Positions 9,890 through 61,255 of a stretch of 64,000 nt of DNA are shown in pieces. Under the pieces are notes generated by a model. The model saw only the letters and a program-made list of their open reading frames with translations, searched no databases and was not told the origin of the DNA. Within the stretch, counting starts at the first letter, position 1; each line of letters opens with the position of its first letter. The DNA comes from Stegostoma tigrinum (lineage: Eukaryota), in assembly GCF_030684315.1 (NCBI RefSeq), contig NC_081359.1, positions 97,360,925-97,424,924 of the forward strand, written 5' to 3'. The position numbers were made by a program, and so were the translations under genes.

Positions 9890-11720
9890 ATTAACAACAG
9901 CCCACATTAGAGGAAGTGGTGCTGGAGGTCTTAAAAAAGGCAGATAAATCGCCAGGACTTGATCAATTGTATCCCAGGATGCTATGGTAAGTTAGGGAAG
10001 AAATCATGGAGCCCCCTAGCAGAAATATTACATCATCTATAACCACAGATGAGGTATCAGAGGACTGAAGAGTAGCCAATGTTGTGCCTTTGTGTAAGGA
10101 AGGCTGTAAGGAGAAGCCTGGGAGTTACAGAGCCGAGAGTCTGACATCAGTAGTGGATAAGTTGTTGGAGGGGATTCTCAGAAATACAATTTACAAGCAT
10201 TTGGAGAGGCAAGGATTGATTAGAGATAGTGCGAGGGAGATCACATCTCAAATTTGATAGAGTTTTTGAGGACATAACCAAAAATATTGATGAGAGCAGA
10301 GCAGGTGACATTGTCTACACGGACTTGAGTAAAGTCTCTGAGGAGAATCTGCACGGTAGCCTAATTGCTAAATTAAGACATATGGGATTCACAGAGTTTG
10401 TCAACCGGACACAAAATTGGTTTGATGGTAGGAGACAAAGGATGGAAGTGGAGGGTGGTTTTTCCAACTGGAGGCCTGTGACCAGCAGCGTGCTGTGGGG
10501 ATTGCTGCTGGGTCCATTTTTGTTTGTCATTTATACAAACGATTTGGATGGCATCATAGGAGGGATGGTTAATAAGTTTGCAAATGACACTAAAATTGGT
10601 GGTATAGTCAACAGTGAAGGTGGTCATCCAAGATTACGAAGGGAACTTCATCAATTTAGCCGAAGAGTTGAGGATTGGCAGATGGAGTTTAATTTGGATA
10701 AATGAGGTATTGTAATTTGGTAAAACAAGCAAGGGCAGACCTGAGGGAGTTAGTTGCAATATTGTCGAACAGAAAAACCGAGGAAAATTGGTGATATAGG
10801 AAGGGTCATTGGAATTCATTCATTTTGAGGAAGGGTCACCGGACCTGAAACGTTAACTCTGCTTTCTCTTTCACAGATGCTGCCAGACCTGCTGAGATTT
10901 TCCAGCAACTTTGTTTTTGCTCCACAGAACCTAGGAATTCAGGTGCATAGTTAAAAGTTTCACAGACAGACAAGGTGATTCAGGAGGAATTTAGCATGCT
11001 TGCTTTCATTGCTCAAGCTATTCAGATAAGGAATTGGGATGTCATGTTGAGTTGTACAGCATGTTGGTGAAAACATTTCTGCAGTACTGTAAACAGTTCT
11101 TGTTCCTGTAGCAGAGCAACATCATTATTAAATTGGAGTGGGTTTGGAAACGATTTACCAGAATGTGGCGAGGACTGAAGGGTATGAGGTTTAAGAATAG
11201 GCTAGATCGGATAGAACTTTTTTCACTAGAGTATAGGAGTTTGAGGGGTGGCCTGATAGAGGTTTATAAAATCAAAAGGGGCAGAGATCAGATGAATAGC
11301 AAAGGTCTTTTTCCTAGGGTTTTACCCTAAGACCGTAAGACATAGGAGTGAAAGTGAGGCCATCGAGTGCACTCCGCGATTTAATCATGGCTGATGGGCA
11401 TTTCAACGCCACTCCCCTGCACTCTCCCCGTAGCCCCGTTTTCTTGAACTTCCAAACTAGAGGGCGTGTTTTTAGGGTGCAAGGAGAAAGATTTAAAAGG
11501 GGCAACTTTTCCCACACAGAGGGTGGTTCATATACGGAATGAACTGCCAGAGGAAGTGATAGATGCACGTACAGTTACAACATTTAAAAGGCATCAGGAT
11601 GGGTACATGATTAGGAGAAATTGTGGGGGTTATGGGCCAACAGGACTAGTTTACTTTGGGAAACTTGGTCGGCATGAGAGAGTTAGGCCGAAGGGTCTGT
11701 TTCCATGCTGTGTGGCTATG
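9890..11720 (+). mobile_element. CR1 LINE ORF2 RT region to 3' end, with nested inserts
   Basis: SSVLWGLLLGPFLFVIYTNDLD...KFANDTKIGG and later CR1 C-terminal motifs. Interrupted at ~10785-10923 and ~11328-11440. Confidence 0.9.
10825..10920 (+). mobile_element. PLE terminal fragment, family C, with HHR-like core
   Basis: tTGAGGA-a-GGGTC-accg-GACCT-GAAACGTT. PLE origin is inferred from the HHR layout and similarity to family B; no family C ORF is seen here. Confidence 0.65.
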
Positions 11721-14116: not shown

Positions 14117-14249
14117 TCTCTCTGATGAAGGGTCTAGTCCTGAAACGTCAGCTTTTGTGCTCCTGAGATGCTGCTTGGCCTGCTGCGTTCATCCAGCTTC
14201 ACACTTTATTATCTTGGATTCTCCAGCATCTGCAGTTCCCATTATCACA
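14117..14249 (+). mobile_element. Solo PLE 3' terminus, family B, with minimal HHR
   Basis: Near-identical to 30016-30147: ctgatgaagggtctagtcctgaaacgtcagc...cagttcccattatc. Confidence 0.85.
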
Positions 14250-21578: not shown

Positions 21579-22807
21579 CTAAAACGGTGATGTTTACAAT
21601 TAGTAATATTTCTTTCAAGCAATTTGCAATTAGTAATTAGTAATTCCTTTATCCCAAACTGAAACTAATCCTGCCTTCAAAAATGGTCAGGTCACTAGGA
21701 TCCATTGAAAATAATTAATTCTCTTGAAAGAACTAGGTGTAGAAGGTCTTAGGTTGCATTACAACAGTAACTTTTTCAGCTTACAAAACATTTACTGTGT
21801 AGGGACAATCAACAATTGCTTCAACTCATAAGAATGTGGAATCATTTTTTTTTGCTGTCTAAGGCTCCATGAATTTGCTCTGCCGTTGCCTTTTTTCTGC
21901 AAATTCTGAGATACTGCTGGGAAATGCAAGATTTGATATTTGAACTTACAGATAAAACATCTTGCAACAGATAAAATTTGTGTAGTGCACTGTAAATCAT
22001 ATTGCAACATGTGAATGCTGCAGTTTAGACAATGACTCGACAAGGTGCATCAAGATTTAACCTTGCGTTCACAAGTAAGTACGACTTACCTACCTGACTA
22101 TTACATTTTCAAACATATACATGACCAGGATTCCTTTTCTTCTGCCCTGACTGTTTTGAGGGTGGCATTGACTTAACAGCAATTGTGCCACAGTTCTGTT
22201 CTCCCCAACACAGGCATGCATACTGCCCTCATGTTCTGACTTGTTCTGTCTTTCTACAAATAAACTAGTTTCTGTCTTCATGTGTGATATGATACCTTGT
22301 TATTTCATAACAGCACTTTTTTCCTCTCTTCTATCTTTATTTTTGAAGTACTGAACTGTTCACCTGTTTTCGTTTTGAAAGCTTCAATTGATATATGAAA
22401 TCAGATTTCCAGAAAACATCATACCACTCTCAATTTTAGTTTTGAGTTCCACATCTCCCCTTCTTAACACACAAAATATAGAAATGCATATCACACTTAA
22501 AACTATACATGATTCTATCCCCATCAGAATCCAAGTTACTAACAATAACAAAACAAACAACATTCCATTATTAGCCAGTCATAGAAATTTCAATGAGATT
22601 TTAGTGCATTTAATAATTTATGGAACAGCATTAGGGAAATATTTCGTTTGGACAGTCAGTGCCGACACAGCATGTCGACCACTGTAACCATCTTCTGGTT
22701 CTGTGAATAGCATCATCGCTTTCACCAAAGCAACGATTAATGGTCCATACTACCGAACGTAACAATTCACAAGTACCTTACGTCAATCAAAAATACCATC
22801 ATCTTAC

Positions 22808-22959
22808 CTAGACCATCAAATCTACCTTGTGCATCCAATAGCATAGTTCGAATGTTCTGAATAGCCCAGGCATAAAGCTTTCCAAAAGTAACTTCCAGTA
22901 ACATACGGTTAAATGGCGGTATGAGATCCACATCCTTCAGGCAGTCTGAAACAGGTTCA
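22808..22959 (-). CDS. HERC2: HERC2 coding exon (152 nt)
   Basis: gtttag|(G)EPVSDCLKDVDLIPPFNRMLLEVTFGKLYAWAIQNIRTMLLDAQGRFDGL g|gtaaga. Confidence 0.95.
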
Positions 22960-23054
22960 CTAAACAGAGGATTTTCATTTCAGTATGAAGGCAGAACATG
23001 AGTTAAATCCAACACGGAAAAAAACTTTATCTTTTAAAAATCACTTTTTTTAAA

Positions 23055-23887: not shown

Positions 23888-24281
23888 TCCATAAAGCCAT
23901 ATATTGGCCATTCACCAAACATCAAATTTTCGAGCTAAAGATGCTGTTTATCAACTTAGCATGCTGTTAAAAATTCAGTTATTCAACAAGGTACAACTTT
24001 GTCAAGGGTTTCCACACTTAACTAGAACATACAGGATCAAGACACTGCTGTCAGTCTCGGATGAGTAAACAATAGTGATCAATTTTGTCATCATTACCAG
24101 CCCAAAATCCATACAGTTCCGAAGAATGAGAAGTGAGCTTGCTGAAACCTAATGCAAGATACTGAGGGGACTTGACACAGTCGATGTAAAGATGTCCCTC
24201 CCTCACCGCCTCCACTAACAACACATCAAGATGAAACTAAAACTGGATGTGAGATTGCTCACTGAGCTGGAAGGTTAGTTT

Positions 24282-24321
24282 TCAGACGTTTCGTCACCAT
24301 TCTAGGTAACATCATCAGTGA
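24282..24321 (-). ncRNA. Minimal hammerhead ribozyme motif, family A (sense to HERC2)
   Basis: Reverse complement of 26854-26893. Confidence 0.8.
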
Positions 24322-26853
24322 GCCTCCGATGAAGCACTGGTGTTATGTCCCGCTTCCTATTTATCTGTTTAGGTTTCCGTGGGTTGGTGATTTCATTTCC
24401 TGTTCCTTTTCTCAGAGGATGGTAGTGTGATTTGGAGCAAATGTGTTTGTTGATGGAGTTTCGGTTGGAATGCCATGCTTCTAGGAATTCTCGTGAGTCT
24501 CTCTGTTTGGCTTGTCCTAGGATGGATGTGTTGTCCCAATCAAAGTGGTGTCCTTCCTCATCTGTATGTAAGGATACTAGTGATAGTGGGTCATGTCGTT
24601 TTGTGGCTAGTTGATGTTCATGTATCCTGGTGGCTAGCTTTCTGCCTGTTTGTCCAATGTAGTGTTTGTCACAGTTCTTGCAAGGTATTTTGTAGATAAC
24701 GTTCGTTTTGCTTGTTGTCTGTATAGGGTCTTTTAAGTTCGTTAGCTGCTGTTTTAGTGCATGGGTGAGTTTTTGGGCTACCCTGATGCCAAGTGGTCCG
24801 AGTAGTCTGGCAGTCATTTCGGAAATGTCTTTGATGTAGGGGAGGGTGGTTCTGGTTTCTGGACCCGTTTTGTCTGTTTCTTTTGGTTTGTTGCTGAGAA
24901 ATTGGCGACTGTGTTCATTGGGTACCCGTTCTTTTTGAATACGCTGTATGGGTGATTTTCCTCTGCTCTGCGTAGTTCCTCTGTGCTGCAGTGTGTGGTG
25001 GCTCGTTGGAATAATGTTCTAATGCAGCTTCGTTTGTGGGTGTTGGGATGGTTGTTCCTGTAGTTCAGTATTTGGTCCGTATGTGTTGTTTTCCTGTAGA
25101 CGCTGGTTTGAAGTTCCCCATTGACTGTTCGCTCTGCAGTGACATCTAGGAATGGCAGTTTATTGTTGTTTTCCTCCTCTTTTGTGAATGTTATGCCAGT
25201 AAGGGTATTATTGATGGTCTTGAAGGTTTCCTCTAATTTGTTTTGTTTAGTGATGACAAAAAGGTGTCATCCACATAGTCTCGGCATTACTGCTTCTGCT
25301 AAGAACCCTGATATCGGAGACCCCATGGGTGTACTGTTGGTTTGTCTGTAGGTTTTGTTATTGAAAGTGAAGTGGGTGGTGAGGCATAGGTCCACTAGCT
25401 TGATGATGTTGTCCTTGCTGATGAGGTTGGTGGTGTCTGGTGTGTGTGTCTTTGGTTCTTCTAATAGTGTAGTCAGTGTTTCTTTGGCCAGGTTGATGTT
25501 GATGGACGTGAACAGGGCTGTTACGTCAAAGGAAACCATTATTTCATCCTCTTCTATCTTGGCATCTTTGGTGTTCGGGAATTCTTGGGTGGAGTGAATG
25601 GAGAGGCGTGAGACTTCTACTAGGTGTTTTAGTCTTTGGTATATTTCCTTGGATAATCTGTAGGTTGGTGTTCCAGGTAGCGAGACTATGGGTATGAGGG
25701 GGTGCTCCTGGTTTGTGAATTTTTGGTAGTCCGTAGAAGTGTGGTGTGTTGGATCCATCTGTTTTCATTTTTTGGAACTCTCTCGTTTAATTCTCCAGAC
25801 ATTTGAAGTTTTGAAGCAGTAATGCAGAGACTCAAACAAACAGCTCTGCCAATCATCCATCCCAAACTTTGGGTCCGCTATGTGGATGACACCTTTGTCA
25901 TCACTAAACAAAACAAATTAGAGGAAACCTTCAAGACCATCAATAATACCCTTTACTGGCATAACATTCACAAAAGAGGAGGAAAACAACAATAAACTGC
26001 CATTCCTAGATGTCACTGCAGAGCGAACAGTCAATGGGGAACTTCAAACCAGCGTCTACAGGAAAACAACACATACGGACCAAATACTGAACTACAGGAG
26101 CAACCATCCCAACACCCACAAACGAAGCTGTATTAGAACATTATTCCAACGAGCCACCACACACTGCAGCACAGAGGAACTACGCAGAGCAGAGGAAAAT
26201 CACCTATACAGCGTATTCAAAAAGAATGGGTACCCTATGAACACAGTCCGCCGATTTCTCAGCAACAAACCCAAACAAACAGAAAAAACAGGCCCAGAAA
26301 CCAGAACCACCCTCCCCTACATCAAAGACATTTCCGAAATGACTGCCAGACTACTCGGACCACTTGGCATCAGGGTAGCCCAAAAACCCACCCACGCACT
26401 AAAACAGCAGCTCACGAACTTAAAAGACCCTATACAGACAACAAGCAAAACGAACGTTATCTACAAAATACCTTGCAAGAATTGTGACAAACACTACATT
26501 GGACAAACAGGCAGAAAGCTAGCCACCAGGATACATGAACATCAACTAGGCACAAAACGACATGACCCACTATCACTAGTATCCTTACATACAGATGAGG
26601 AAGGACACCACTTTGATTGGGACAACACATCCATCCTAGGACAAGCCAAACAGCCACACACGAGAATTCCTAGACGCATGGCATTCCAACCGAAACTCCA
26701 TCAACAAACACATTTGCTCCAAATCACACTACCATCCTCTGAGAAAAGGAACAGGAAATGAAATCACCAATGCAGGAAATGGCATCACCAACCCAAGGAA
26801 ACCTAAACAGATAAATAGGAAGCGGGACATAACACCAGTGCTTCAGCGGAGGC

Positions 26854-26893
26854 TCACTGATGATGTTACCTAGAATGGTGACGAAACGTCTGA
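26854..26893 (+). ncRNA. Minimal type-I hammerhead ribozyme motif, family A
   Basis: tca-CTGATGA-t-GTTACC-tagaat-GGTGAC-GAAA-cg-TC-tga: intact core, 6-bp stem II, palindromic ACGU stem III, 3-bp stem I. Confidence 0.8.
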
Positions 26894-27864
26894 AAACTAA
26901 CCTTCCAGCTCAGCGAGCAATCTCACATCCAGAACCTCAACCTGAGGTACAAATCTTCTCAAAACTAGAACTAAAGAACAGTTTAAAAATAAGGGGTTTC
27001 CCATTTAAAATAGATGAGAATTTTTTCTCTCAGTGACATAAGTTTTTGAAATTCTCGAACACACAGAGCAATGGAGGCAATATCAATGAACGCTTTTAGG
27101 GCAGACACTGAAATAGATTTTTACCAAAGAAATCATTGGTTATTTAGGGTAGACAGGAATATGGAGTTGAGGTGACAATCAGCCAGGACCTCTTGACAGG
27201 TGAAACAGGCTAGATGAACTCAGTGGCCTGCACGCCTGCTCCCAATTTGTAAAAATCTAGGCCATTAATTCTGCTTATGTTTCAAGCAGCAATTTTTTTT
27301 CAAAGATAAGATTTATGTCTTTAAAAATTAGTTTCAATCTGACAAGATTGGTTTGAATAAGTAGTCATTCAGCCACAGAAAAAGAGCCTTTGATCCAACC
27401 ATCCAAAATGAATCACTTCACACTTTTCCGGGTTGAATTCCATCTGCCACTTCTTTGCCCAGCTCTTCATCCTGTCAATGTCCACTGCAACTTACAACTG
27501 CCCTCCATACTATCCACAACTCCAACAACCTTCATGTCATAGGCTAATTTACTAACCGATCCTTCCACTTCCCCATCCAAGTCATTTATAAAGATCACAA
27601 AAAGCCGAGGTCCCAGGACAAATCCCTGCAGAACAGCACTGGTCAACAAGTTCCAGATTGAATACTTTCCATCTACTACCACCCTCTGTCTAATATCGGA
27701 CTGCCAATTCAGTATCCAGACAGCTAAATTCCCTGAATCCCTTGCCACCTTACTTTCTGAATTAGCCTATTATGGGGAACTTAATCAAATGTCTTGCTAA
27801 AATCCATACATACCACATCCACTGCTCTACCTTCAATGTCTTTTGTCACATCCTCAAAGAATTC

Positions 27865-28118: not shown

Positions 28119-28208
28119 TTCAATAAGGCTTGTGAGGCATGACCTGTCTCAGCCTGCTCCTGCCCCACCGAACTCATCTCCACCTATCTGGACTCCATTT
28201 TCTCCCCT

Positions 28209-29795
28209 TTGGTCCAGGAACTCCCCACCTATGTCCATGACACCACCCACGCCCTCCACCTCCTCCAGGACTTCCAATTCCCTGGCCCCCAACACCTCAT
28301 ATTCACCATGGACGTCCAGTCCCTGTACACCTGCATTCCGCATGGAGATGGCCTCAAGGCCCTCCGCTTCTTCCTGTCCCGCAGGCCCGACCAGGCCCCC
28401 TCCACCGACACTCTCATCCGCCTAGCGGAACTCGTCCTCACACTCAACAACTTCTCTTTTGACTCCTCCCACTTCCTACAGACTAAGGGGGTGGCCATGG
28501 GCACCCGCATGGGCCCCAGCTATGCCTGCCTCTTTGTAGGTTACGTGGAACAGTCCATCTTCCGCACCTACACAGGCCCCAAACCCCACCTCTTCCTCCG
28601 GTACATTGATGACTGTATCGGCGCCGCCTCTTGCTCCCCAGAGGAGCTCGAACAGTTCATCCACTTCACCAACACCTTCCACCCCAACCTTCAGTTCACC
28701 TGGGCCATCTCCAGCACATCCCTCACCTTCCGGGACCTCTCAGTCTCCATCTCAGGCAACCAGCTTGTAACTGATGTCCATTTCAAGCCCACCGACTCCC
28801 ACAGCTACCTAGAATACACCTCCTCCCACCCACCCTCCTGCAAAAATTCCATCCCCTATTCCCAATTCCTCCGCCTCCGCCACATCTGCTCCCACGATAA
28901 GACATTCCACTCCCGCACATCCCAGATGTCCAAGTTCTTTAAGGACCGCAACTTCCCCCCCACGGTGATTGAGAACGCCCTTGACCGCGTCTCCCGCATT
29001 TCCCGCGACACATCCCTCACACCCCGCCCCCGCCACAACCGCCCCAAGAGGATCCCCCTCGTTCTCACACACCACCCTACCAACCTCCGGATACAACGCA
29101 TTATCCTCCGACACTTCCGCCATTTACAATCCGACCCCACCACCCAAGACATTTTTCCATCCCATCCCCTGTCTGCTTTCCGGAGAGACCACTCTCTCCG
29201 TGACTCCCTTGTTCGCTCCACACTGCCCTCCAACCCCACCACACCCGGCACCTTCCCCTGCAACCGCAGGAAATGCTACACTTGTCCCCACACCTCCTCC
29301 CTCACCCCTATCCCAGGCCCCAAGATGACATTCCACATTAAGCAGAGGTTCACCTGCACATCTGCCAATGTGGTATACTGCATCCACTGTACCCGGTGCG
29401 GCTTTCTCTACATTGGGGAAACCAAGCGGAGGCTTGGGGACCGCTTTGCAGAACACCTCCGCTCAGTTCGCAACAAACAACTGCACCTCCCAGTCGCAAA
29501 CCATTTCCACTCCCCCTCCCATTCTCTTGATGACATGTCCATCATGGGCCTCCTGCACTGCCACAATGATGCCACCCGAAGGTTGCAGGAACAGCAACTC
29601 ATATTCCGCCTGGGAACCCTGCAGCCATATGGTATCAATGTGGACTTCACCAGTTTCAAAATCTCCCCTTCCCCCACTGCATCCCTAAACCAGCCCAGTT
29701 CATCCCCTCCCCCCACTGCACCACACAACCAGCCCAGCTCTTCCCCCCCACCCACTGCATCCCAAAACCAGTCCAACCTGTCTCTGCCTCCCTAA
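28209..29795 (+). CDS. PLE RT + GIY-YIG endonuclease ORF (528 aa; frame is open from ~28149; true N-terminus missing)
   Basis: ORF track plus the motifs above. The TTG start is not a real initiator. Confidence 0.85.
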   Translation: MVQELPTYVHDTTHALHLLQDFQFPGPQHLIFTMDVQSLYTCIPHGDGLKALRFFLSRRPDQAPSTDTLIRLAELVLTLNNFSFDSSHFLQTKGVAMGTRMGPSYACLFVGYVEQSIFRTYTGPKPHLFLRYIDDCIGAASCSPEELEQFIHFTNTFHPNLQFTWAISSTSLTFRDLSVSISGNQLVTDVHFKPTDSHSYLEYTSSHPPSCKNSIPYSQFLRLRHICSHDKTFHSRTSQMSKFFKDRNFPPTVIENALDRVSRISRDTSLTPRPRHNRPKRIPLVLTHHPTNLRIQRIILRHFRHLQSDPTTQDIFPSHPLSAFRRDHSLRDSLVRSTLPSNPTTPGTFPCNRRKCYTCPHTSSLTPIPGPKMTFHIKQRFTCTSANVVYCIHCTRCGFLYIGETKRRLGDRFAEHLRSVRNKQLHLPVANHFHSPSHSLDDMSIMGLLHCHNDATRRLQEQQLIFRLGTLQPYGINVDFTSFKISPSPTASLNQPSSSPPPTAPHNQPSSSPPPTASQNQSNLSLPP

Positions 29796-30017
29796 CCGGT
29801 TCTTCCTCTCACCCATCCCTTCCTCCCACCCCAAGCCGCACCCCCAGCTACCTACTAACCTCATCCCACCTGCTTGACCTGTCCGTCTTCCCTGGACTGA
29901 CCTATCCCCTCCCTACCTCCCCACCCACACCTTCTCCACCTATCTTCTTTACTCTCCAACTTCGGTCCGCCTCCCCCTCTCTCCCTATTTATTCCAGTTC
30001 CCTCCCCCCATCCCCCT

Positions 30018-30049
30018 CTCTGATGAAGGGTCTAGGCCCGAAACGTCAG
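30018..30049 (+). ncRNA. Minimal hammerhead ribozyme motif, family B
   Basis: ct-CTGATGA-a-GGGT-ctag-GCCC-GAAA-cg-TC-ag. Confidence 0.75.
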
Positions 30050-31889
30050 CTTTTGTGCTCCTGAGATGCTGCTTGGCCTGCTGTGTTCATCCAGCCTCAC
30101 ATTTTATTATCTTGGAATCTCCAGCATCTGCAGTTCCCATTATCTCTCCTCACATAGCCATGTTGGCTATTTCCAATCGAACTGTGCTTTTCCAAATAAT
30201 AATAAATGCTATCTTTCAGAATCCTCTTCAATAATTTGCCAATCATAGAAGACAGACTTACTGGTCTGTATTTCCCAGATTATCCCTGTTCCCTTTCTTG
30301 AACAACAGAATAAAATTTGCAACCATTCAATCATCTGGTGGATAGTGAGGATGCTAAGATCATTGCCAAAGGCGCAATCTCTTCCCTCACTTCCCGCAGT
30401 AACCTTGAGTATATCCCATCTGGCCCAGGGGACTTTTCTTTTCTCACGTTTTTCAAAATTTCTAGCACATCCTCCTTCCTAACGTCAACCTGTTTGAGTC
30501 AATCAGCCTCTTTCACGCTGTCCTCTCAAACGTCAAGGTCCCTCTCACTGGTGAAATTGGAAGCAAAGTGTTCATTAAGGACATCCCCTACCACCTCCAA
30601 CCTCGGACAAAAATTCCCTCCCATATCCCTGATCGGCCCTGCCCTCACTCTGACCGTCCTCTTATTCCTCATGCATGTATAGAGCACCTTGGGGTTTTTC
30701 TTAATCCTAACCACCAAGGCTTTTTCATGTCCCCTTCTTGCTCTACTCAGTCCATTCTTCAGTTCTTTCCTGGCTATCTTGAAACCCTCTACAGCCCTGC
30801 CCAATCCACGCTTCCTCAGCCTTAAGTAAGCTTCCTTCTTCCTTGCATTTAGCCAGAGTGAACTCTATCTGCCATTTTCCAGCCCAGAGGCCCATTTGAT
30901 CAAGATCTCTTTGTAATCTTAGAAAACCTTCTTTACTCTCTACAATGCCACCAATTTTGATGTCATCCACAAACTTACTGTCTTCTATATTCTCATCCAA
31001 ATCATTTATATAAAATGACAAACAAGAGGATGCAGAACACCACTGGTCACAGGCTTCTAGTCTGACATGCCATTATTCCATCTCCTGCCATTAAGCGAAT
31101 TATGTACTTATTGGCAAGCTCACCCTGAATCCCAGGTGACCTAAATTTACTAATTAATCTGTCATGTGGAACCTTGTCCAGTTTCTCTTTACAACCTTTC
31201 TTAAACAAAGGTACAACATCAGCCACCCTCCTGTCATCAGGCACCTCACCAGTAGTTATAGTTAATGCAAATATTTCTGCAAGGGATCTTGTAATCTCCT
31301 CCCTGACATCACACAACATTCTGGGATGTATTCTTTAAGGCCTCCCAAACTTCCTCTTCTGTAATGTGAACGGTTTTTAAAACATCAAAGTTTATTTTTC
31401 TGCATTCTCTAGACTATTTCTTTCTCCACTGCAAAAACTGAAAATATTCATTTAGTATCTCTCCCATCTGCTTGGGTTCAACACAAAGATGACCTTGCTG
31501 ATCATTAAGAGGCCCAACCCACTATCTAGTTACCTTCTTGCACTTAACGTATTTGTAGAATCTCTTGGATTATCTTTAACCTTATCGGCCAATGCTATCT
31601 CATATCCCATCATAGCCTTCCTGATTTCTCTCTTAAGAATGCCCCGACACTCCATGTTGATTAAGAGATTCAATTGAACCAAGTTATCTACATCTTTTAA
31701 AAAATTCTTTTATTCCTGACTGGAACCTCAATATCTTTGTTCATCCACTGTTCCTTCATCTTACCAGCCTTACCCTTCACTCTAATAGGAACAAAATGCC
31801 TCTGAACTCTCATCACACTCCAACACCTCCTATTTGTCAGATGTCCTTTCACCTAACAGTCTACTCCAATCAACTTTTAAAGCTGTTTC

Positions 31890-32724
31890 AGAGATTGTAG
31901 GAACTGCAAATGCTAGAGAATCTGAGATAACAAGGTGTACAGCTGGATGAACAGAGCAGGCAAAGCAGCAGAGGAGAAAGAAGCTGACATTTCAGACCCA
32001 GACTCTCCTTCAGAAATGGGGGAGGGGCAGGGGATTCTGAAATAAATAGGGAGAGGGGAGGCAGTGGATAGAAGATGGATAAAGAAGAACATAGGTAGAG
32101 AGGAGGCAGACAGGTCAAAGGAGTGGGGGTACAGCCAGTAAAGGAGAGAGTGTAGGTGGGGAGTTAGGGAGGGGATAGGTCAGTCCAGGACGACAGACAG
32201 GTCAAGGGGGTGGGATGAGGTTAGTAGGTAGGAGATGAGGGTGGGGCTTGAGGTGGGAAGAGGGGATAGATGGGAGGAAGGACAGGTTAAGGAGGTGGGA
32301 ACAAGCTGGGCTGGTTTTGGGATGTGGTTGGGGGAGTGGATATTTTGAGGCTTGTGAAGTCCACACTGTTACCATTGGGCTGCAGGGTTCCCAAGCTGAA
32401 TAGAAGATGCTGTTCCTGCAACCTTTGGGTGGCATCGTTGTGGCACAGGAGGTGGTCCAGGATGGGCATGTCAAAGGAGTTGAAATGGTTCGTGACTGGG
32501 AGGTACAGTTGTTTGTTGCGAACTTCTTTGATTTGTCTGTCTCCTCTCCACCTATCTTCTCCTCTATCCATCTTCTATCCGCCTCCTCCTCTCTCCCTAT
32601 TTATTTCAGAATCCCCTTCCCCTCCCTCATTTCTGTAGGAGGATCTAGGCCTGAAATATCAGCTTTCCTGCTTCTCTGATGCTGCTTGGTCTGCCGTGTT
32701 CATCCAGCTTTACACCTTGTCATC
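31890..32724. mobile_element. Family B PLE, inverted pair of 3' fragments
   Basis: Minus arm 31890-~32525 (RNKQLYLPVTNHFNS...RLQEQHLLFSLGTLQP) and plus arm ~32526-32724. Flanked by tcaactttt at 31870-31878 and 32725-32733. Confidence 0.85.
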
Positions 32725-33988
32725 TCAACTTTTGAACGTTCTTGTCTCATACCATTGAAATTTGCCAAACTCCAATTAAATAATGTAACTTTTATGGAAG
32801 GCTTTCGTTCTTCCATAAGCATTTTGAAATTAACAAGAATTATGATTGCTAGACCAATGTGTTCTCACACTTAATTCAGTCACCTGCCCTGCCTTATTGC
32901 ACAAATGGTGGTCTAATTTAAATAATCTTTTCTAGTGGGAGCATCCACATATTGATAGACAAAACTTTAAGCACATTTGACCAGTTCTTCACCATCCAAA
33001 CCTTTAACACTACGGTAGTCCCAGTCAATGTTTAGAAAATTAAAATCCCCCATTACTACTACATTATTATGCTTACATATCTCTGCATATTTGTCAGTCA
33101 ATTTCTCTTACAATTGGGGGGTCGAAAGTACAATCTCAAAGTGATCTTTCCTTTATTTGTAATTTCTACCCATATATTTTCACTAGACAATTTTTCAAAA
33201 CTATCTTCCCTAGTTACAGCAATAACATATTCCTTAATCAAAAAACTCCAGCCCCCTTCCTTTCTCGCCACCTTTTCTATACTTCCTCCAGCATCAAAAA
33301 CCAGGAACACTGAGCTGCCAGTCTTGGCCATCTCTCAAACAAGTTTTTGTAATAGCTATGACGTCCCAATCCCGTGTTCTTATACATGCCGAGTTCAGCC
33401 TTACTTGTAAGGCCGCTTGCATTGAAATAAACGCAATTTAGTTCTTCAGAGTTATTACATACTCTGATTTTCTCTTTCTTTTCTAATTGTTGCTCTCATG
33501 TTCAGAATCTACTCCAATCCTTCCATTTACACTGCTACTCAGAATTCCTCCACTTGCCTTCTCCATCAGTATAACGTCTCCCTTAATCAAATGAACAAAT
33601 CACCCAGCTAAGATATTGGTTCCTTTCCAGTTTAAGTTAGACCCATCCTTTTTGGGCAGGTCTTTTCCATCCTAAAAGACATTCCAGTTGTCCCTGAACA
33701 ATACACCAGCTCTTTAGCAATTGATTTATGTTCTTTAACTTTTTGCTCCTTTCCTCATTTCAGTTTGGCATTGGAAGTAAGCCAGAAATTACTAATTCTA
33801 AAGGTCTTACTTTTTAAATGTTTTCATAACTTCTTAAATTCACTCTATACTGCTTTAATCCTTTGCATAAAAATGTCTTTTCTACCAATGTATACAATAA
33901 CTTCTGGCTTCTCAATCTCACCCTAAGCAACATGCTTGAAATGTTTAGAAACATCTTTAATCCTAGCACCAGGAAAGCAACAAACCAT

Positions 33989-34209
33989 GATAATAAAGTG
34001 TGAAGCTGGATGAACACAGCAGGCCAAGCAGCATCTCAGGAGCACAAAAGCTGATGTTTCGGGCCTAGACCCTTCATCAGAGACCCTCTGAAAAAGGGTC
34101 TAGGCCCGAAACGTCAGCTTTTGTGCTCCTGAGATGCTGCTTGGCCTGCTGTGTTCATCCAGCTTCACATTTTATTATCTTGGATTCTCCAGCATCTCCA
34201 TTATCACTG
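33989..34209. mobile_element. Miniature fold-back PLE derivative, family B, 14-bp TSD
   Basis: Arms 33989-~34083 and ~34087-34179. TSD aagcaacaaaccat at 33975-33988 and 34210-34223. Confidence 0.9.
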
Positions 34210-34372
34210 AAGCAACAAACCATCCTAAGTTTACACGCAGTGCCACATATTTTAGATAAAGAACAACAGAAAACCTGCAGCTGAAATCACAGATCTACTA
34301 AGTTATCATGGTACAGCGGGAGCTTTCTGCCATTGGAAGACATTTCCATTGATCAGAGCCTCTAATAGCAGA

Positions 34373-34410: not shown

Positions 34411-34539
34411 AATACTGAAGGTACCAACTTAACTCCAAAACCCCATGGATATCCAAACCGCATATACTGTGGGCATGCGGTTTTAGGAGTGCACAGGTGA
34501 GAAACTATTTAAAATAAATTTAAAAGTAAGTATTTTTAC

Positions 34540-34676
34540 CCTATATTTATCCCCTCAGGGATGAGTCTTTGCCAACCACATAACATGCCATATTGCACTG
34601 ATGGAAGCAAAAAACTTTTTGATACCAGTTTAAGCATTGTGTCAATTCCTTCCAATCGAACTTCAGCTCTCTCCAG
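34540..34676 (-). CDS. HERC2: HERC2 coding exon (137 nt)
   Basis: ttgcag|LERAEVRLEGIDTMLKLVSKSFLLPSVQYGMLCGWQRLIPEGINI gg|gtaaaa. Confidence 0.95.
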
Positions 34677-35669: not shown

Positions 35670-36760
35670 CAGTTACAACACTGGAGCCTGCCCACCATTC
35701 AATACAATAACTCCTGATCAAACACCAATTCCTTTCACTTATCCTATCCGCGTAACACAAGATGCCTCTAGTAATCAGAAATCTGTCAAAGTCTACCTTG
35801 AATGTATTCAACAACTAAGCCTCATAGCCTCTGAAAGGAAATTCCAATGGTTCACAACCCTCAAACGATTTCTCCTCATCTCAGACCTAAGTGGCTGTAG
35901 ACTCCCCACCCAGCAGGAACATCTTACATGTATCGACCCTGTCTATCCCTTTAAATATTTTGCACATTTCAAGGAGATCAACCCTCATTCTTCACAACTC
36001 CAGCACAAGCAGGCCCAGTTTGTCCAATATAACAAAGTGTGGAGCTGGATGAACACAGCAGGCCAAGCAGCATCTTAGGAGCACAGAAGCTGACGTTGAG
36101 CCTAGACCTTACATCAGATTTAGCCCTGAAACATCAGCTTTCCTGCTCCTACAACGCTGCTTGGCCTGCTGTGTTCATCCAGCTCCACACTTTGTTATCT
36201 CAGATTCCCCAGCGTCTGCAGTTCCAATTATCTCTGATACAATTTTAACTCCAGTTTGTCCAATCACTCTTCATAGGACAGCTATGCCATCCCACAAGTT
36301 TGATAAAGTTTCATTGCACTCCTTCTTTGGCAAATCATCTTGAATGAGATATGAAGGTCAAAACTACACTCATTACTTAGAGTCATACAGCACAGAAACA
36401 GACCCTTTGGTCCAAGTAGACCACACCGACCAGGTTCCCAAACCAAATTAGTCCCACTTGTCAGTGTTTGGCCTGTATTGCTGTAAACCTTTCCCATTCA
36501 TGAACTTATCCAAATGCCTTTTAAATGCTGTAACTGTACCTGCATCCACCACTTCCTCTGGCTGTTCATTCCACATATGAAACACCCAGTGTGAAAAAGT
36601 TGCCCTAGGTTATTTTTAAAATCTTTTTCTTCTCACCTTAAAAACACACCCACCAGTTTTGAACTCCCCACTCTAGGGAAACAGCCTTTGCTTTTCACCT
36701 TATCTATGCCACTCACGATTTTATAAACCTTTACAAGGTCACCCCTCAACATTACTTTTT
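35670..36760 (-). mobile_element. CR1 3' fragments (two copies) with nested mini-PLE
   Basis: The second copy starts at ~36380 (gagtcatacagcacagaaacagacccttt). CR1 C-terminal motifs are present. Confidence 0.7.
36029..36250. mobile_element. Miniature fold-back PLE derivative, family B, 14-bp TSD
   Basis: TSD ccagtttgtccaat at 36015-36028 and 36251-36264. Confidence 0.9.
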
Positions 36761-40368: not shown

Positions 40369-40581
40369 CTAAAATCAAAATACCACAGATGTTCGTAATC
40401 TGATATAAACAAAGAAGGCTTGAGAAACTCAACATGTCTGGCAGTATCCATGAAGAAACAGAATTAACATTTCACGGAGGATATACTCTTCGATGTTCTG
40501 AACTTTAAATATCAACTCTGCTTCTCTCTCCACAGATGCTGCCAGGCATGTGGAGCTTCTCAAGCAGTCTCAGAGTTGGTG
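40369..40581. mobile_element. Older miniature fold-back element, family C-like, 14-bp TSD
   Basis: TSD tcttaaagaatcaa at 40355-40368 and 40582-40595. Inverted arms gcttgagaaactcaacatgtctggcag / ctgccaggcatgtggagcttctcaagc. Confidence 0.8.
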
Positions 40582-42787: not shown

Positions 42788-42986
42788 AAGACAGAATGAA
42801 CTGTCGATGCTGGAGTCAGAGTAAATACAGTGTGGAGCTGGAGGAACACAGCCGGCCAGGCAGCAGAGGAGCAGCAAAGTTGACATCTCAGGTTAGACCC
42901 TTCTTTAGAGGGTCCCGACTCAAAATGTCGACTTTCCTACTCATCTGATGTTGCCTGGCCTGGGTGTTCCTCCAGCTCCACACTGT
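42788..42986. mobile_element. Miniature fold-back PLE derivative, family B-related, 12-bp TSD
   Basis: TSD acctgctgaaag at 42776-42787 and 42987-42998. Arms acagtgtggagctggaggaacac / gtgttcctccagctccacactgt. Confidence 0.88.
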
Positions 42987-44978: not shown

Positions 44979-45341
44979 CTGGTAAATATAGAAATTGTGT
45001 TAATTCTACAAACAACTGTATTGTTTGGATATTACTAAAATAGCTTAATAAAATTCAAGATTTCTTTTCAAGTGGTAATGCAAACTTGAATGTTAAATCT
45101 TGCTCAATTTTCAATAAGAACTCAAATTGTCATTGCTTGTCGTCTCTTTTTGCAAGCCTCAAGTTCACATACCATACTAATTAGCGTAACAGCAATCACA
45201 GATGCTGCAAGTCAACCTCAACGTAGCTCCACATTTAGCAGGAAACACCACTCAAACAAGGCAAGAAGAATGCCCTTACAGTTCAACTGATCATTGGTTC
45301 TCCACCACCTATTTCCTTTTCTACTTAAACACAAATAGGTC

Positions 45342-46074
45342 TAAAGTTATGACAGATCTGCAGCTCGGGTTGTGGATGAGATTATTGACTTGCTTACCGA
45401 GCTGGTTTGTTTTTCTTCAGACATTTCGTCACCATGCTAGGTGACATCAGTGGAGCCTCCGACACAGCAGTGCTGTTCTACTCTGCTTGGAATTATTACT
45501 GTCTAGTCCTTTATGGTGAATACTGTCATTTCCAGCTTTGATCTGTAGGGGTTTGTATATGGGGTCCAATTCTATGTGTTTGTTGATTGAAGTATAGTGG
45601 AGAACCATGCCTCTAGGAATTCCTGTTCATGCCTATGTTTGGCTTGGGCTACTATGGTTACCTTTACCCAGTTAGACTGATGGCCTTCATTGTCTGAATG
45701 TACTCAATGTAGCAGGAAAACGGCACAACAAATTCTCCTTAATGCTGGTACATTCAGACAATGAAGGCCATCAATTTAACTGGGACAAGGTAGCTGTAGT
45801 AGGCCAAGTCGAACATAGACATGCACGGGAATTCCTAGAGGCATGGTTCTCCACCCAAAATTCAAACAACAAACAAATAGAATTGGACCTCATACACAAA
45901 CCCATACAGATGAAAACCAGGAATGACACTGCTCACCACAACAGGCCAGAGTGTATAAATTCCGAGCGGAGTAGAATAACGTCACTTCATCGGAAGTTGC
46001 ACTGATGATATCACCTGGCACGGTGACAGAACTTCTGAACACAAACAAGCCAGCTCAGTGAGCAAGTCGACAGC
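45342..46074. mobile_element. Family A-related PLE, inverted pair of 3' fragments
   Basis: Minus arm to ~45705. The plus arm encodes HSDNEGHQFNWDKV...AREFLEAWFS and has a degenerate HHR ctgatgatatcacctggcacggtgac. Flanked by cacaaatag at 45330-45338 and 46075-46083. Confidence 0.85.
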
Positions 46075-46564: not shown

Positions 46565-46789
46565 AAACAAAACTGCAAATGCTGGAGATCTAGAACGAAA
46601 AAAAAATAAAGTTGCTAAGAAAACTGAGCAGGTCCAGCAGTATCTGTGGAGAAAAAGCAAAGTTAATGTTTCAACTCCTATGACCCTTCTGAAAGGCAGT
46701 TCAAGCACTGTAAAAGTTAAATGTGTTTTCTCTCCACAGTTGCTGCCAGACCTGGTGGGCTTCTCCAACAATTTCTGTTTTGACTCGAG
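46565..46789. mobile_element. Miniature fold-back element, family C-like, 13-bp TSD (1 mismatch)
   Basis: ttagtctgatgca at 46552-46564 and ttagtctaatgca at 46790-46802. Confidence 0.8.
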
Positions 46790-51553: not shown

Positions 51554-51829
51554 ATAACAAGATGTGGAGCTCAATGCATACAGCTAGCCAAGCAGCATCT
51601 CAGGAGCAGGAAAGCTGCCGTTTCAGGCCTAGCCCCCTCATCAGAAATGGGGGAGGGGGAAGAGTGTTCTGAAATAAATACGGAGAGAGGGGGAGGCGGA
51701 GAGATCCCCAGAGGTTTGTCCAGAAGGTGGAGGGTAACTTCTTCAGGTTAGATATCTTTAGAAGAGGCTTCGCAGTGGGGTTAAAGTTGTATCAGAGATA
51801 ATAGGAACTGCAGATGCTGCAGAATCCGA
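51554..51829 (-). mobile_element. Short family B PLE derivative with permuted order (tail segment first, HHR terminus last)
   Basis: The minus strand begins tcggattctgcagcatctgcagttcc and ends gctccacatcttgttat. These two strings are contiguous in other copies. Confidence 0.75.
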
Positions 51830-53303: not shown

Positions 53304-54949
53304 AGAGATAATAAAGTGTAGAGCTGGATGAACACAGCAGGCCGAGCAGCATCTTAGGGGCACAAATGCTAACATTTCAGGCCTAGATCCTTCATCAGAA
53401 ATGGGGAAGGGGGAAGAGGGTTCTGAAACAAATAGGGAGAGACGGGAAGCAGATCGAAGATTGATAGAGGAGAATTTAGGTGGAGAGGAGACAGACAAGT
53501 TAAAGAGGTGGGGATGGAACCAGTAGAGGTGAGTGTAGGTGGGAAGGCAGGGAGGGGATAGGTCAGTCCGGGGAGAATGGACAGGTCAAGGGGGTGGGAT
53601 TAAGTTAGTAAGAAGTAAATTGGGGTGCGGCTTGAGGTGGGAGGAGGGGATAGGTGAGAGGAAGAACAGGTTAGGGAGGCAGGGACAAGCTGGGCTGGTT
53701 TTGGGATGCAGTAGGGGAGGGAAGATTTTGAAGCTTGTGAAACCTACATTGATACCATTGAAGCAGAACATAGGTTGCTGTTCCTGCAACCTTCAGGTGG
53801 CATCGTTGTGGCACTGCAGGAGGCCCAGGATGGACATGTCGTCTGAGGAATGGGAGGGGGAGTTGAAATGGTTCACGACTGGGAGATGCAGTTGTTTATT
53901 GCAAACCGAGCGTAGGTGTTCTGCAAAGCAGTCCCCAAGCCTCTGCTTGGTTTCCCCGATGTAGAGGAGGCCACAACGGTTACAGCGGATGCAGTATACC
54001 ACATTGGCGGATGTGCAGGTGAACATCTGCTTGATGTGGAAAGTCATCTTGGGGCCTGGGGTGGGGGTTAAGGCAGAGGTATGGGGGCAAGTGTAGCACT
54101 TCCTGCGATTGCAGGGGAAAGTGCTGGGTGTGGTGGGGTTGGAGGGGATGGTGGAGTGGACAAGGGAGTCATGGAGAGAGTGGTCCCTCCACAAAGCAGA
54201 CAAGGATGGGGAGGAAAAATGTCTTTGGTGGTGGGGTCGGATTGCAGATAGCAGAAGTGTCGGAGGAAGATGCATTGGATCTGGAGGTTGGTCGGGTGGT
54301 ACGTGAGGACAAGGGGGATTCTCTTTTGGTAGTTATTGCGGTGAGGGGGCATGAGGGATAAGTTGCGGGAAATGTGGGAGACACAGTCAAGGGCGTTCTC
54401 GACCACTGCGGGAGAGAAGTTGCGGCCCTTGAAACAAAAAGAGGACATCTGAGATGTACGGGAGTGGAATGCCTCATCCTGGGAGCAGGTGTGGCAGAGG
54501 TGAAAGAATTGGGAATAGGGAATGGCACTTTTGCAGAAAGGTGGGTGGGAGGAGGTGTATTCTAGGTAGCTGTGGGAGTCGGTGGGCTTGAAATGGATAT
54601 CGGTTTCTAGGTGGTTGCCCGAGATGGAGACAGAGAGGTCCAGGAAGGTGAGGGATGTGTTGGAGATGGTCCAGGTGAACTTGGAGGTTGGTGTGGAAGA
54701 TGTCGGTGAAGTGGATGAACTGCTCGAGCTCCTCCTGGGAGCACGAGGCGGCGCTAATACAGTCATCAACGTAAAGGAGGAAGAGGTGGGGTTTGGGAGT
54801 CAGTGTAGATACGGAAAAGGGATTGTTCCACCTAACCTACAAAGAGGCAGCCATAGTTTGGGCCCATGCAGATGCCCATGATACCCCCTTTGTCTGTGGG
54901 AAGTGGGGGGAATCAAAAGAGAAGTTGTTGAGGGTGAAGTTGAGTTCTC
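53304..54949 (-). mobile_element. Family B (Neptune-type) PLE, 5'-truncated and frameshifted, with TSD
   Basis: Homologous to 28146-30147 (CNRRKCYTC, LYIGETK). TSD tctggcacctgaaaacc (53287-53303) / tctgatacctgaaaacc (54950-54966), 15/17 match. Confidence 0.92.
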
Positions 54950-55864
54950 TCTGATACCTGAAAACCTGAATGGCTTAAAAAGACATTTATTTGAATATGC
55001 AAGACCAAACTGAGAAAATACTGACAATCAATACAATTAGTAGCATGGTACAAATCTCTTGGGCATGGGTTTTTTATTCACTTTGCTGCTTTGTCTAATT
55101 GCAAAAAATATAGTTCAGGATACAGGTTTTTGCATCAATTTATTGAAAAAGGTGTTGAACCAAACTACATAAGTATGAAATAGATGATGAGAAGATAAGT
55201 GGAATACTTGTAAGTATTTATTTTATATTTCCATTAAATTGTAGATTGGTTAATGCAGAGGAGACCAGTGTGTCACGTCCACATCAGCTCTCTTCAAAAG
55301 AAACTCTCTTGATACTCTCATTCCCTGTTCTGACAGCACAGCTCTGCACCTCTCTCCAAGCAAGTATCCAATTCTTTTTTGAAAGCCCTGGTAAGTATGT
55401 GCCTCACCACATTCTCAGGTAGTGTTTTTCCACTTGGTGCAAAAATATTTTGTCATTCTGCTGCTGGTTCTTTTGTAAATCACCTTATTTAGATGCCCAT
55501 TCACCAACAGGAACGCATTCGGCCAGAATTTCCATGGAGTCAGGAGTATTCCAGACACCCTTAAAACCAGCAAGGTGGGGCCCAGCTACAGAAGTCCCAT
55601 CCCCATTCCCAACAGTTCACATTTTCATCAGCTGGGGAAAGGCGCCAGAACTTGGAGTGTATATTAGGGAAAGCTCTCTCATCTGGACTATTTGTAGATC
55701 TGACTGTCATTCCAGAAATAGCCTCAACAAGCAGTATTCTCTCAGGCTTCATGGTGGAAACAAATGCTTGAGAAGACTGGTAGAAGGTAGAACTGTCCAA
55801 CTCTAATAACATGTTTGACATCCTTTCAAATACGTAATCCCCTACATCAACATTGTACTCCTAG

Positions 55865-59053: not shown

Positions 59054-59229
59054 CTAAAGCAAAAAATTATTCGGAAAAACACAGGCGTTGCCAATTTAAT
59101 GCTCACTGTCAATCATCCACAGAAACCCATCTGCTTGAATGTGTCAGTCAATTTACCACAATACCGAATATCTAAAACAAGAATATAACGTTGGAAATCG
59201 TCAGCAGATTGGAAAGCATTTGTAGAGCA

Positions 59230-59288
59230 AGAAACAAAGTTAACATTTCAGGTCTGGGTTGTCAACCTGAAATGTTAACTTTGTTTCT
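59230..59288. repeat. Perfect 24-bp inverted repeat with 11-nt loop (core of a degraded family C fold-back)
   Basis: agaaacaaagttaacatttcaggt / acctgaaatgttaactttgtttct. Confidence 0.9.
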
Positions 59289-60614
59289 CTCGCTTCCAAC
59301 AATGCCAGACTGTTGTTTCTATTCGAATTTGCAGTACACTTGATATTTTCATAGAATTAAGTACAGAAGAGGCTCTTCAGCCAATTGAGTCTGCACCGAA
59401 ACAAGCTAATTCTACACTAGTCCCACTTTCCAGCATTTACCCCCTTGCCTTAAATATTCCAACATTTCATGTGCTGATTCAAAAAAATTTTTTTAAAGGC
59501 TGTGAGGTTTCACATCACAATCTTCAAATCTCTTGTAAACCTCCTGCCTTTCACCTTAAAACTATGACGCCTTGTTATTCACACTTCCACTGGGTTGAGC
59601 AGCTGCGTTCTACTCGCTGTGTACATTCTCAATCTTTTATCCCTTTTATATGGTGAGAGGAAAATATATAAATACATTACATTAGAAAGTGTTCCCAATT
59701 CCAACCTCTCATCTGCACTTCCTTCACACAACACTCTCAATTACTCCATAGACTTCAATGAAACCCCAGGCCCCAAAACTCATCAAGGCTAACCATTACA
59801 CAGTAGCTATGTAGAGATACCTTTTGGCTGCTCCGCTATCTCCAACGCAGACTGCAAAATCCTTCCACCTACCGAGCTCCCAAAAAGAACATTCATGTTT
59901 CTTCACAAAATTACTCCAGGCATGGTTTGTCTAAACTTTGCGCAATGGTAGCAAGACAATTAGGGCCAAAATACCATTTACCTTCTCAATTGCTTATCGC
60001 ACCTACATGTTAACTGTTTTTCGTGTATACGGGCACCAAAATCTCTCTAAACATTCATGTTTCTCAGTCTCTCACCATTTAAAAATTATTCTGCTTTTCT
60101 GCCAAAATGAATAATATCACGTTTCTCCACACTATATGTCATCTACAACCTTCTAGCTCATTCGTTTGACCTCTTTATATCCCTTCACACCTTCCTCACA
60201 ACTTACTTTCTAACCAAACCTTCATCACTAACAGATTCTTAAGTCAGAAAAAAAACGGTTAAAGGCTGAGGCACCAGCACTATATCTTACAGCACTTAGT
60301 AACAGCCGGACAGTACTGGAAAAGAACACTCCTTCCCGTTAAAATATTGTGAAAAATCATTTGCTGCAGCAAATTTAAACAGGCTTACTTGAGAAACAGC
60401 ATCATGAGGTGTAGGTGGAAGAAGAATCGCATTGAAGTAAGAGACAACGTAAAGTGAGATAAGTAAACTGACTGATGTCTAAAGACAAGTTGAAGCAGGA
60501 GGTATGGGCTCACAACAAAAGTGATCCTAAACAAACCACTGAACTTCTTTAGATCATACATGCTACGGAGTAAAATTAAGCCATGATTAAAAATGTCACT
60601 TACTAATTGTACTC

Positions 60615-60814
60615 AAACAAAAACAGAAGTTGCTGAAAAGCTGAGCACATATGAAGAATCTGTGAAGAAAAAAATTCAGTTAACCTTTCGGGTGCAGTGG
60701 CACTTCCATTCTGAGGAAGGGTCACCGGACCCCAAACGTTAACTCTTGATTTTTTTTCCCCCCCACAGATGATGCCAGACCTGCTGAGCTTTTTTAGCAA
60801 CTTCTGTTTTTGTT
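60615..60814. mobile_element. Miniature fold-back element, family C
   Basis: Termini aacaaaaacagaagttgct / agcaacttctgtttttgtt. Core CTGAGGA-a-GGGTC-accg-GACCC-caaacgtt. Degraded TSD actaattgtact/actaattctagt. Confidence 0.8.
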
Positions 60815-60914
60815 CACTAATTCTAGTGTTTGGTTGTGTTAATTCATCTTTTAATCAGTTCCACAACAAGTTTCAAATTGAAAAACAAAAGAAAAAGGTC
60901 TTGCCCCATAGAAA

Positions 60915-61255
60915 TGCATTAATGGATGTTGACCTTGCCGGCAAGGTCAACATCCACTGTCCAGCCCAACTGGTGAATTGTCTGTCTGAATACAACTGCC
61001 GGTCCATTTCAGGGGAGCGCTCCTAAGAGTCAGCCACATTGCTGTGGATATGGAGTCACATAAGCAATACGGCAGATATCATCCTTAACGGGGCATTTAC
61101 GCACTATAGGGGTTTTCTCATAGTCATGGTCACCACTATTGATAATAGATTTACTTAATTGCTTGTGTTCAAATTCCACCAGATTACTATTTGAACTCTT
61201 GCCTCCTTTAAAGAGTCAATGGGGTCTACGAATTTCTAGTTTAGTAACAAACTCT
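60915..61255 (-). mobile_element. Deu-SINE-like (SacSINE1-type) SINE, degraded
   Basis: taagagtcagccacattgctgtgg..tggagtcaca and a head complementary to 43430-43540. Confidence 0.6.

Follow-up and report, generated by a model that had tools for sequence, protein, structure and literature searches.

The insertion at 33989–34209 of the window, the whole 64-kb stretch of Stegostoma tigrinum DNA analysed here, consists of two 3' ends of a Penelope-like element (PLE) enclosed in one target site duplication (TSD). It was formed anew, with a probability of about 0.6, by priming on both target strands with likely run-off at the mRNA 5' end. Formation anew, as opposed to copying as a unit, is highly probable, and two-ended priming is clearly favoured over snap-back; that run-off at the transcription start sets the size of the element has about an even chance of being correct.

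Organization of the insertion, its target and its donor

33975..33988, plus strand: target site duplication, left copy, 14 bp
33989..34083, minus strand: left arm, 3' terminus of family-B PLE, tail-less
34084..34085, unstranded: centre, short stem with a 3-nt loop, unlike the centres of the other six short elements
34086..34209, plus strand: right arm, 3' terminus of family-B PLE, tail included
34210..34223, plus strand: target site duplication, right copy, 14 bp
33650..33988, continuing at 34210 and above, minus strand: decayed LINE ORF1 esterase fragment, the target, divided by the insertion
28143..30148, plus strand: ORF-bearing family-B PLE, 5'-truncated, with RT, CX4CX2C linker, GIY-YIG, 3' UTR, hammerhead and tail
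29986..29992, plus strand: TATA-like TATTTAT, candidate promoter

The insert is 221 bp long and is composed of two head-to-head PLE 3' ends, as the initial annotation had proposed. Positions marked 'ref.' are those in the ORF-bearing family-B copy 28143–30148, to the 3' end of which both arms align: the left arm (33989–34083, minus strand) with 96.8% identity to ref. 30017–30111 and the right arm (34086–34200, plus strand) with 95.7% identity to ref. 30018–30132. The left arm runs from ref. ~30112 to position -3 relative to the hammerhead core, and the right arm extends through the tail towards ref. 30147; this tail starts at ~34180 and contains a short internal deletion. The arms are not symmetric, a point missed in the initial annotation, one of them carrying a tail beyond the end of its partner. 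The flanking direct repeat (33975–33988 and 34210–34223), also noticed earlier, is perfect over 14 bp (p ~0.001, 1500 random placements). The sequence 33989–34209 folds into one long stem (-186.5 kcal/mol, z -28.9). No ORF, and hence no ORF flanked by direct pLTRs, is present in the 221-bp element, and a poly(A) tract is absent from the insert.

The core motif of a minimal hammerhead is located at ref. 30020 in the 3' end of the donor and recurs in copies of the family, the predicted ribozyme cut falling after ref. 30047. The hammerhead assignment is based on this motif and on PMC4209133; the Rfam search of the 64-kb window returned no hammerhead and three weak unrelated matches. Arms of the family are thus ribozyme-bearing in the sense of the core motif, as had been claimed, but in the 33989 element both motifs are altered and neither was recognized by Rfam. 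In the left arm the GAAAC-GTC palindrome, which serves in dimer pairing, is altered at a CpG, and the right-arm core is altered at positions 7–8, with the loss of G8, which is required for hammerhead cleavage (PMC11167929). In a transcript of either strand the ribozyme motif would be buried in the 90-bp stem. The insert likely has neither ribozyme activity nor mobility.

The split LINE at 33650–33988 is presumably CR1, the name given in the initial annotation to the divided ORF1 motif. The ORF1 part of that assignment was upheld: the left flank, which on the minus strand reads MVCCFPGARIKDV, matches the LINE ORF1 esterase PDB 4C1B with E 0.0011; the last residues of the right flank are MVCCF. 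Between 1020 and 58999 the window has more than 20 exon matches to HERC2-like proteins, from a gene on the minus strand; the 33989 element is located in an intron of this gene, between exons 34539–34673 and 22806–22976. The introns of the HERC2-like gene hold most of the PLE insertions described in the window.

The donor copy 28143–30148 is itself one-armed and has no TSD. Its frame encodes 550 residues with matches to RVT_1 at E 2.5e-05 and to GIY-YIG at E 0.0017, neither reaching the Pfam curated cut-offs; the best named matches of the protein belong to Stegostoma tigrinum (94%) and to Rhincodon typus (88%). The frame contains a CX4CX2C linker and two cysteines within GIY-YIG (CNRRKCYTC, CIHCTRC). 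A CX2-5CxxC linker between RT and EN, together with two cysteines in GIY-YIG, is described for Neptune and Nematis PLEs (PMC8557442), and by its predicted protein sequence family B has the linker and cysteines of these clades.

Upstream of the hammerhead core lie two motifs which we take to be TATA-like and initiator-like. The former lies 34–36 nt upstream of the core in all five copies reaching it, in one of them with a single change; the latter, CATTT, lies at -4 in the four older of these copies. The heptamer ATTATCT occurs at both end points of family B, 30106–30112 and 30139–30145, 33 nt apart, and is a candidate common signal for two RT start sites. At 51554–51829 (minus strand), a partial tandem consists of a tail and ~95 nt of post-tail sequence, followed by a jump to a 3' UTR and a tail-less terminus. 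No TSD was found around it. This arrangement indicates that the PLE element continues beyond the tail; comparison of the post-tail sequence 51701–51793 with the N-terminus of the ORF gave peptide scores of at most 34.

Fold-backs and one-armed insertions in the window

36029..36250, unstranded: short family-B fold-back, 14-bp TSD, right-side tail
42788..42986, unstranded: short fold-back, related subfamily, TSD of 12 bp, left-side tail
40369..40581, unstranded: old family-C fold-back, 14-bp TSD, left-side tail
46565..46789, unstranded: family-C fold-back, 13-bp TSD (1 mismatch), left-side tail
60612..60815, unstranded: family-C fold-back with a weak TSD of 10 bp (1 mismatch), both arms tail-less
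59170..59330, unstranded: decayed family-C fold-back, edges uncertain, TSD not found
31882..32724, unstranded: long family-B fold-back, arms of ~640 bp (with tail) and ~200 bp, 12-bp TSD (1 mismatch)
53307..54955, unstranded: family B, tail-less arm of 1.64 kb plus ~8 nt matching the tail end, 14-bp TSD (1 mismatch)
24245..26961, unstranded: family-A fold-back of 2.7 kb, both arms ORF-bearing, right tail, 11-bp TSD (1 mismatch)
45339..46074, unstranded: fold-back of 0.74 kb related to family A, left tail, 9-bp TSD
14118..14246, plus strand: one-armed stub of family B, tail present, 5' end at -4 of the hammerhead core, TSD absent

Seven short fold-backs are present in the 64-kb window, and their centres are different in all seven. 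The recurrences listed in the initial annotation held for 36029, 40369, 42788 and 46565, all with TSDs of 12–14 bp; 60612 has a weaker TSD of 10 bp (p 0.015 under a narrow null and 0.17 under a wide one), and the copy at 59230 is two-armed with no TSD found. The proposed class of ~200–220 bp likewise describes the short copies, but the same design occurs with long, ORF-bearing arms: fold-backs in the window measure 199–2717 bp, and long arms reach 1.6 kb. TSDs of 12–14 bp are typical of most short copies, while the full range of lengths comprises 9, 10, 11, 12, 13 and 14 bp. In the family-A element 24245–26961 the arms are 95% identical over 1.06 kb, and the left arm has an internal deletion.

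The TSD is associated with the presence of two arms. With edges fixed to ±6 nt and partly placed from the TSDs themselves, a TSD was present in 10 of 11 two-armed and in none of six one-armed insertions (p <= 0.015 each; Fisher p 0.0006), so that inverted pairs with a TSD exceed chance adjacency, as had been predicted. A wider search from BLAST edges gave 8/11 against 0/6 at p <= 0.05, and if 53307, the second arm of which is a weak call of ~8 nt, is recounted as one-armed, the split becomes 9/10 against 1/7. A tail is present on one arm only in nine of the ten TSD-bounded two-armed elements, the exception, 60612, having none (binomial p 0.011).

In 36029, 24245 and 53307 each arm has sequence absent from its partner; neither arm was therefore copied from the other, unless the centre was later deleted. 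The arms of 36029 have TG and CC, respectively, at ref. 30054–30055, and since both alleles occur in other copies, two templates are indicated; such mixed-subfamily arms were found in one of four family-B/D fold-backs. The arms of 33989 differ at one weak discordant non-CpG site only, and those of 42788 are concordant in subfamily alleles. The right arm of 33989 and the ORF-bearing copy agree at all but 1 of 71 sites, and alleles of older arms recur in older long copies, which shows that the stubs follow autonomous lineages.

A perfect 34-bp palindrome at 60923–60956 is unrelated to PLE termini by BLAST. At 10800–10840 a short duplication of the ribozyme stem II region is located just upstream of the family-C stub 10821, which has a possible flanking 8-bp repeat (p 0.11). 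Pattern scans of viral contigs gave 0 and 0 matches. Those of metagenome contigs gave 0 and 1 match; the matching contig (L001) shares only 23 bp with the window and was rejected as a chance match.

Arm end points and the origin of the short elements

Among family-B/D arms, 7 of 12 5' ends are located at -4 to +13 of the hammerhead core and none at -5 to -53, a clustering with p <= 2e-5 under geometric truncation, with arms that are not independent. In this count the -87 values of 31882L, 31882R and 53307L, which are alignment breaks in low-complexity sequence, were treated as long arms, and the family-C arms 40369L/R, 46565R and 59230L/R were excluded as too decayed. The one-armed stubs 14118, 8987 and 10821 also end at the ribozyme-core boundary, while none of the five family-A arms in the window ends at its ribozyme.

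Contigs of four runs, two from the same species and two from related species, were aligned to 28143–30148, and the long, low-agreement loose ends were taken. Among the 24 of 7634 rows listed, loose ends in the two same-species runs were located at 30019 (698 and 715 contigs), 30112 (625 and 629) and 30147 (587 and 571), and in one of these runs also at 30095 (315 contigs); loose-end and joint counts are undercounts. Contig depth increases 3.6–3.8 fold at 30019 in both same-species runs, a jump that is not equivalent to copy number and is inflated by older subfamilies failing the 85% cut upstream. The ~30019 boundary lies 30–33 nt below the TATA-like motif, and the predicted ribozyme cut (after 30047) follows 28 nt further down; for this distance, cleavage by the ribozyme was rejected as the determinant of arm length. 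A splice acceptor was rejected as well, the nearest AG ending at 30028 and the loose ends entering unrelated flanks.

No dominant head-to-head centre was found among the 15 of 839 joints listed, the near-ribozyme joint 30027/30059 being represented by 2–3 contigs; this carries little weight because the joints are undercounted and near-perfect palindromes can break contigs. The strongest opposite-strand joints listed connect 30110–30112 with 30144–30147 (161 and 179 contigs, four rows), with contig sides of only 25–56 nt; they would arise by nested insertion at the end of an older copy or from fold-back concatemers or circles. Direct tandems of the short unit, with joints from 30144–30147 back to 30017–30025, are represented by 9–16 contigs per row and fit either a retrozyme-like arrangement or run-off followed by re-priming. 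One joint row links 30147 to 30048, adjoining the predicted ribozyme cut.

The arms correspond to the terminus of a PLE encoding RT and GIY-YIG, one stopping at the first end point and the other at the tail end. In the mechanism proposed, the PLE protein would nick both target strands 9–14 nt apart and extend both 3' ends, the stagger between the nicks giving the TSD. This step is modelled on TSD geometry and on in vitro work with an anole PLE, which cleaves and extends both strands, has two internal start sites flanking the tail, is predicted to act as a dimer and yields a product shortened by 5' truncation of the RNA (PMC11167929). Each target strand would prime one arm, one from each of the internal start sites, 33–35 nt apart, and the two arms may sometimes be templated by two different RNAs. 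The start sites used would belong to the 5' copy of the terminus and lie immediately 3' of the TATA-like candidate promoter; synthesis from there would stop at the RNA 5' end near ref. 30016–30019, each cDNA running off after ~95–130 bases. Transcription of PLEs is reported to begin within the upstream terminus (PMC6765202). The internal promoter of D. virilis Penelope is TATA-less (PMC2377424), which counts against the run-off reading, as do the family-A arms and the low peptide scores for a connection of the tail with the ORF start, and the promoter in the proposed mechanism is read from the motif itself. Joining of the non-complementary cDNA ends, involving little trimming or microhomology, and fill-in would then produce both the unique centre and the TSD. 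Priming on the 3' copy of the terminus would yield long arms, failure of one end would yield solos without TSD, and the product would be a dead insertion rather than a mobile unit. The central asymmetry could also have come from a later deletion in an unstable palindrome.

The element may instead have formed anew by snap-back, in which the cDNA folds near the ribozyme and is copied back, the endonuclease resolving the end and leaving the tail one-sided; self-priming has been proposed for PLEs (PMC3846280). This is unlikely. It agrees with the near-perfect short hairpin at the centre of 33989, with the constant origin of both arms of an element from the same family, including the diagnostic alleles common to the arms of 42788, and with the tailed arms of 31882, 42788 and 45339, each of which could contain its partner. 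Against it, neither arm contains its partner in 36029, 24245 and 53307, the arms of 36029 differ in subfamily alleles at two adjacent non-CpG sites, and solos ending at the identical place are left unexplained. Marginally less probable again is two-ended priming in which size is set by the ribozyme hairpin of the cDNA, ending synthesis or shielding the cDNA end from trimming at the hairpin base (ref. 30020), with no link to the transcription start. The 5' base of the hairpin (predicted span 30020–30049) does coincide with the contig boundary at 30019, and family C, the upstream sequence of which is absent from the window, ends at the same motif. Yet the hairpin (-11.4 kcal/mol, z -0.67) is no more stable than shuffled sequences, several ends lie 2–4 nt upstream of its base, and family A has the ribozyme without such ends in the window. 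Stalling at an RNA hairpin is, moreover, generally expected at its 3' side, here near 30049.

Doubtful, too, is a non-autonomous family, in which short masters, either stubs in the manner of SINEs and retrozymes or fold-backs in the manner of MITEs, are mobilized in trans by the PLE protein. In its favour, non-autonomous elements derived from PLEs are known (PMC8557442; bioRxiv 10.64898/2026.07.22.740005), the short unit is abundant in contigs, with sharp and shared boundaries, and the opposite-strand joints between tail end and first end, together with the direct tandems, fit concatemers or circles. The divergence of all seven short centres, the lack of a dominant centre joint among those listed and the agreement of stub alleles with autonomous lineages argue otherwise, and a copied fold-back is not expected to combine the one-tail rule with new centres. 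The suggestion of the initial annotation that these are a common minimal product of PLE integration, each formed independently, was thus favoured by the seven different centres, the size continuum up to 2.7 kb and arms that track the subfamilies of ORF-bearing copies; its other suggestion, a MITE-like mobile non-autonomous class, found no support for the elements as a whole and may apply to a minority. Such a mobile subset, a retro-MITE of two PLE ends mobilized by the PLE protein through a circular or concatemeric intermediate, marked by the opposite-strand joint of ref. 30144–30147 to 30110–30112, the bulk of copies being strong-stop-like run-off cDNAs, is as doubtful as the non-autonomous family; if true, tens of thousands of natural junctions in the bulk would mark where PLE transcription starts. 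Least probable by far are DNA-transposon MITEs or the chance neighbouring of two independent PLE ends. The size of ~200 bp, the inverted arms and the TSD look MITE-like, but the inverted repeat does not abut both TSDs, one arm having an unpaired tail, the TSD varies from 9 to 14 bp, the arms are retroelement ends, the seven short copies have no internal sequence in common, and among the 56 window ORFs scanned, of 88, none matched a transposase family. One TSD enclosing both arms would not result from two independent insertions, and for the 33989 element both of these readings are refuted by the identity of the arms, their ORF-bearing source and the enclosing TSD.

Relation to known systems and significance

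PLE insertions with an inverted 5'-truncated copy, a tail of 30–40 bp at one end and a TSD of 8–10 bp have been described (PMC3846280, PMC8557442, PMC2377424); the inverted copy with one-sided tail and TSD is therefore not a new class but already known for PLEs (PMC3846280, PMC8557442). Complex insertions of EN+ PLEs share with 33989 the head-to-head inverted copy, the tail of 30–40 bp at one end, the palindromic junction and, by its core motif, a putative ribozyme in the terminus, and with the fold-backs of the window the variable TSD of ~8–14 bp. They differ in that both copies in 33989 are only ~95–130 bp long and lack an ORF and a direct pLTR pair, and in that the 5' ends of the window arms cluster at one site, whereas the inverted copy is variable in size in the published accounts available. 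In the available text of the PLE papers compared, the restriction of TSDs to two-armed insertions, an element with arms of two subfamilies and the pile-up of arm 5' ends at one place were not described. The 33989 element is a minimal form of the known PLE insertion type, not a new class or a MITE family.

In twin priming of LINE-1, both target strands prime cDNA and an inversion within the TSD results, the twin primers copying different, non-overlapping parts of one poly(A) RNA. The 33989 element lacks this defining feature, both of its arms copying one segment from two adjacent start sites. MITEs are by definition small and have inverted arms and a TSD whose length is set by the transposase superfamily; elements of the 33989 type differ from them in asymmetric ends, variable TSDs, unique centres and retroelement origin.

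The anole Poseidon PAc shares two RT starts flanking the tail and the cutting and extension of both strands, and ribozyme cleavage is unnecessary there, as here (PMC11167929). PAc belongs to the Penelope/Poseidon clade, while family B has a Neptune/Nematis-type linker, and two-armed products or a run-off size class are not described in the main text on PAc (PMC11167929). Pairs of minimal hammerheads on opposite strands in Schistosoma, like the candidate hammerheads of 33989, lie close together and are ascribed to truncated PLEs; in the available text they are mentioned in one sentence, as 100–700 bp apart, without analysis of TSD, tail or junction (PMC4209133). Non-LTR retrozymes are likewise short non-coding derivatives of PLE pLTRs with type I hammerheads, but they are direct tandems with a ribozyme per unit, whereas 33989 is an inverted pair with one buried motif per strand (bioRxiv 10.64898/2026.07.22.740005). 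The word 'shark' is absent from the available text of that preprint (10.64898/2026.07.22.740005). Among the literature titles searched, a set with most subscription papers outside it, nothing was found on a ~200-bp size class in sharks, a run-off product or PLE twin priming.

According to PMC8557442, how PLEs integrate is still undefined; the minimal products hold both starts, both stops and the TSD in ~220 bp and bear on how the inverted copy and tail arise. The structure itself is known, and the value of these elements is as a test of mechanism through the fixed boundary, the one-tail rule and the TSD rule. The short products are abundant, with seven in the window, and genome-wide they would allow two-ended priming to be compared with snap-back, and a strong-stop-like run-off step to be tested, without new bench work. 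For annotation, tools based on terminal inverted repeats would likely label these fold-backs MITEs. In the host, fold-backs in the HERC2 introns would form ~90-bp double-stranded RNA in the pre-mRNA, and any effect of the 33989 element on the host would be as such intronic double-stranded RNA.
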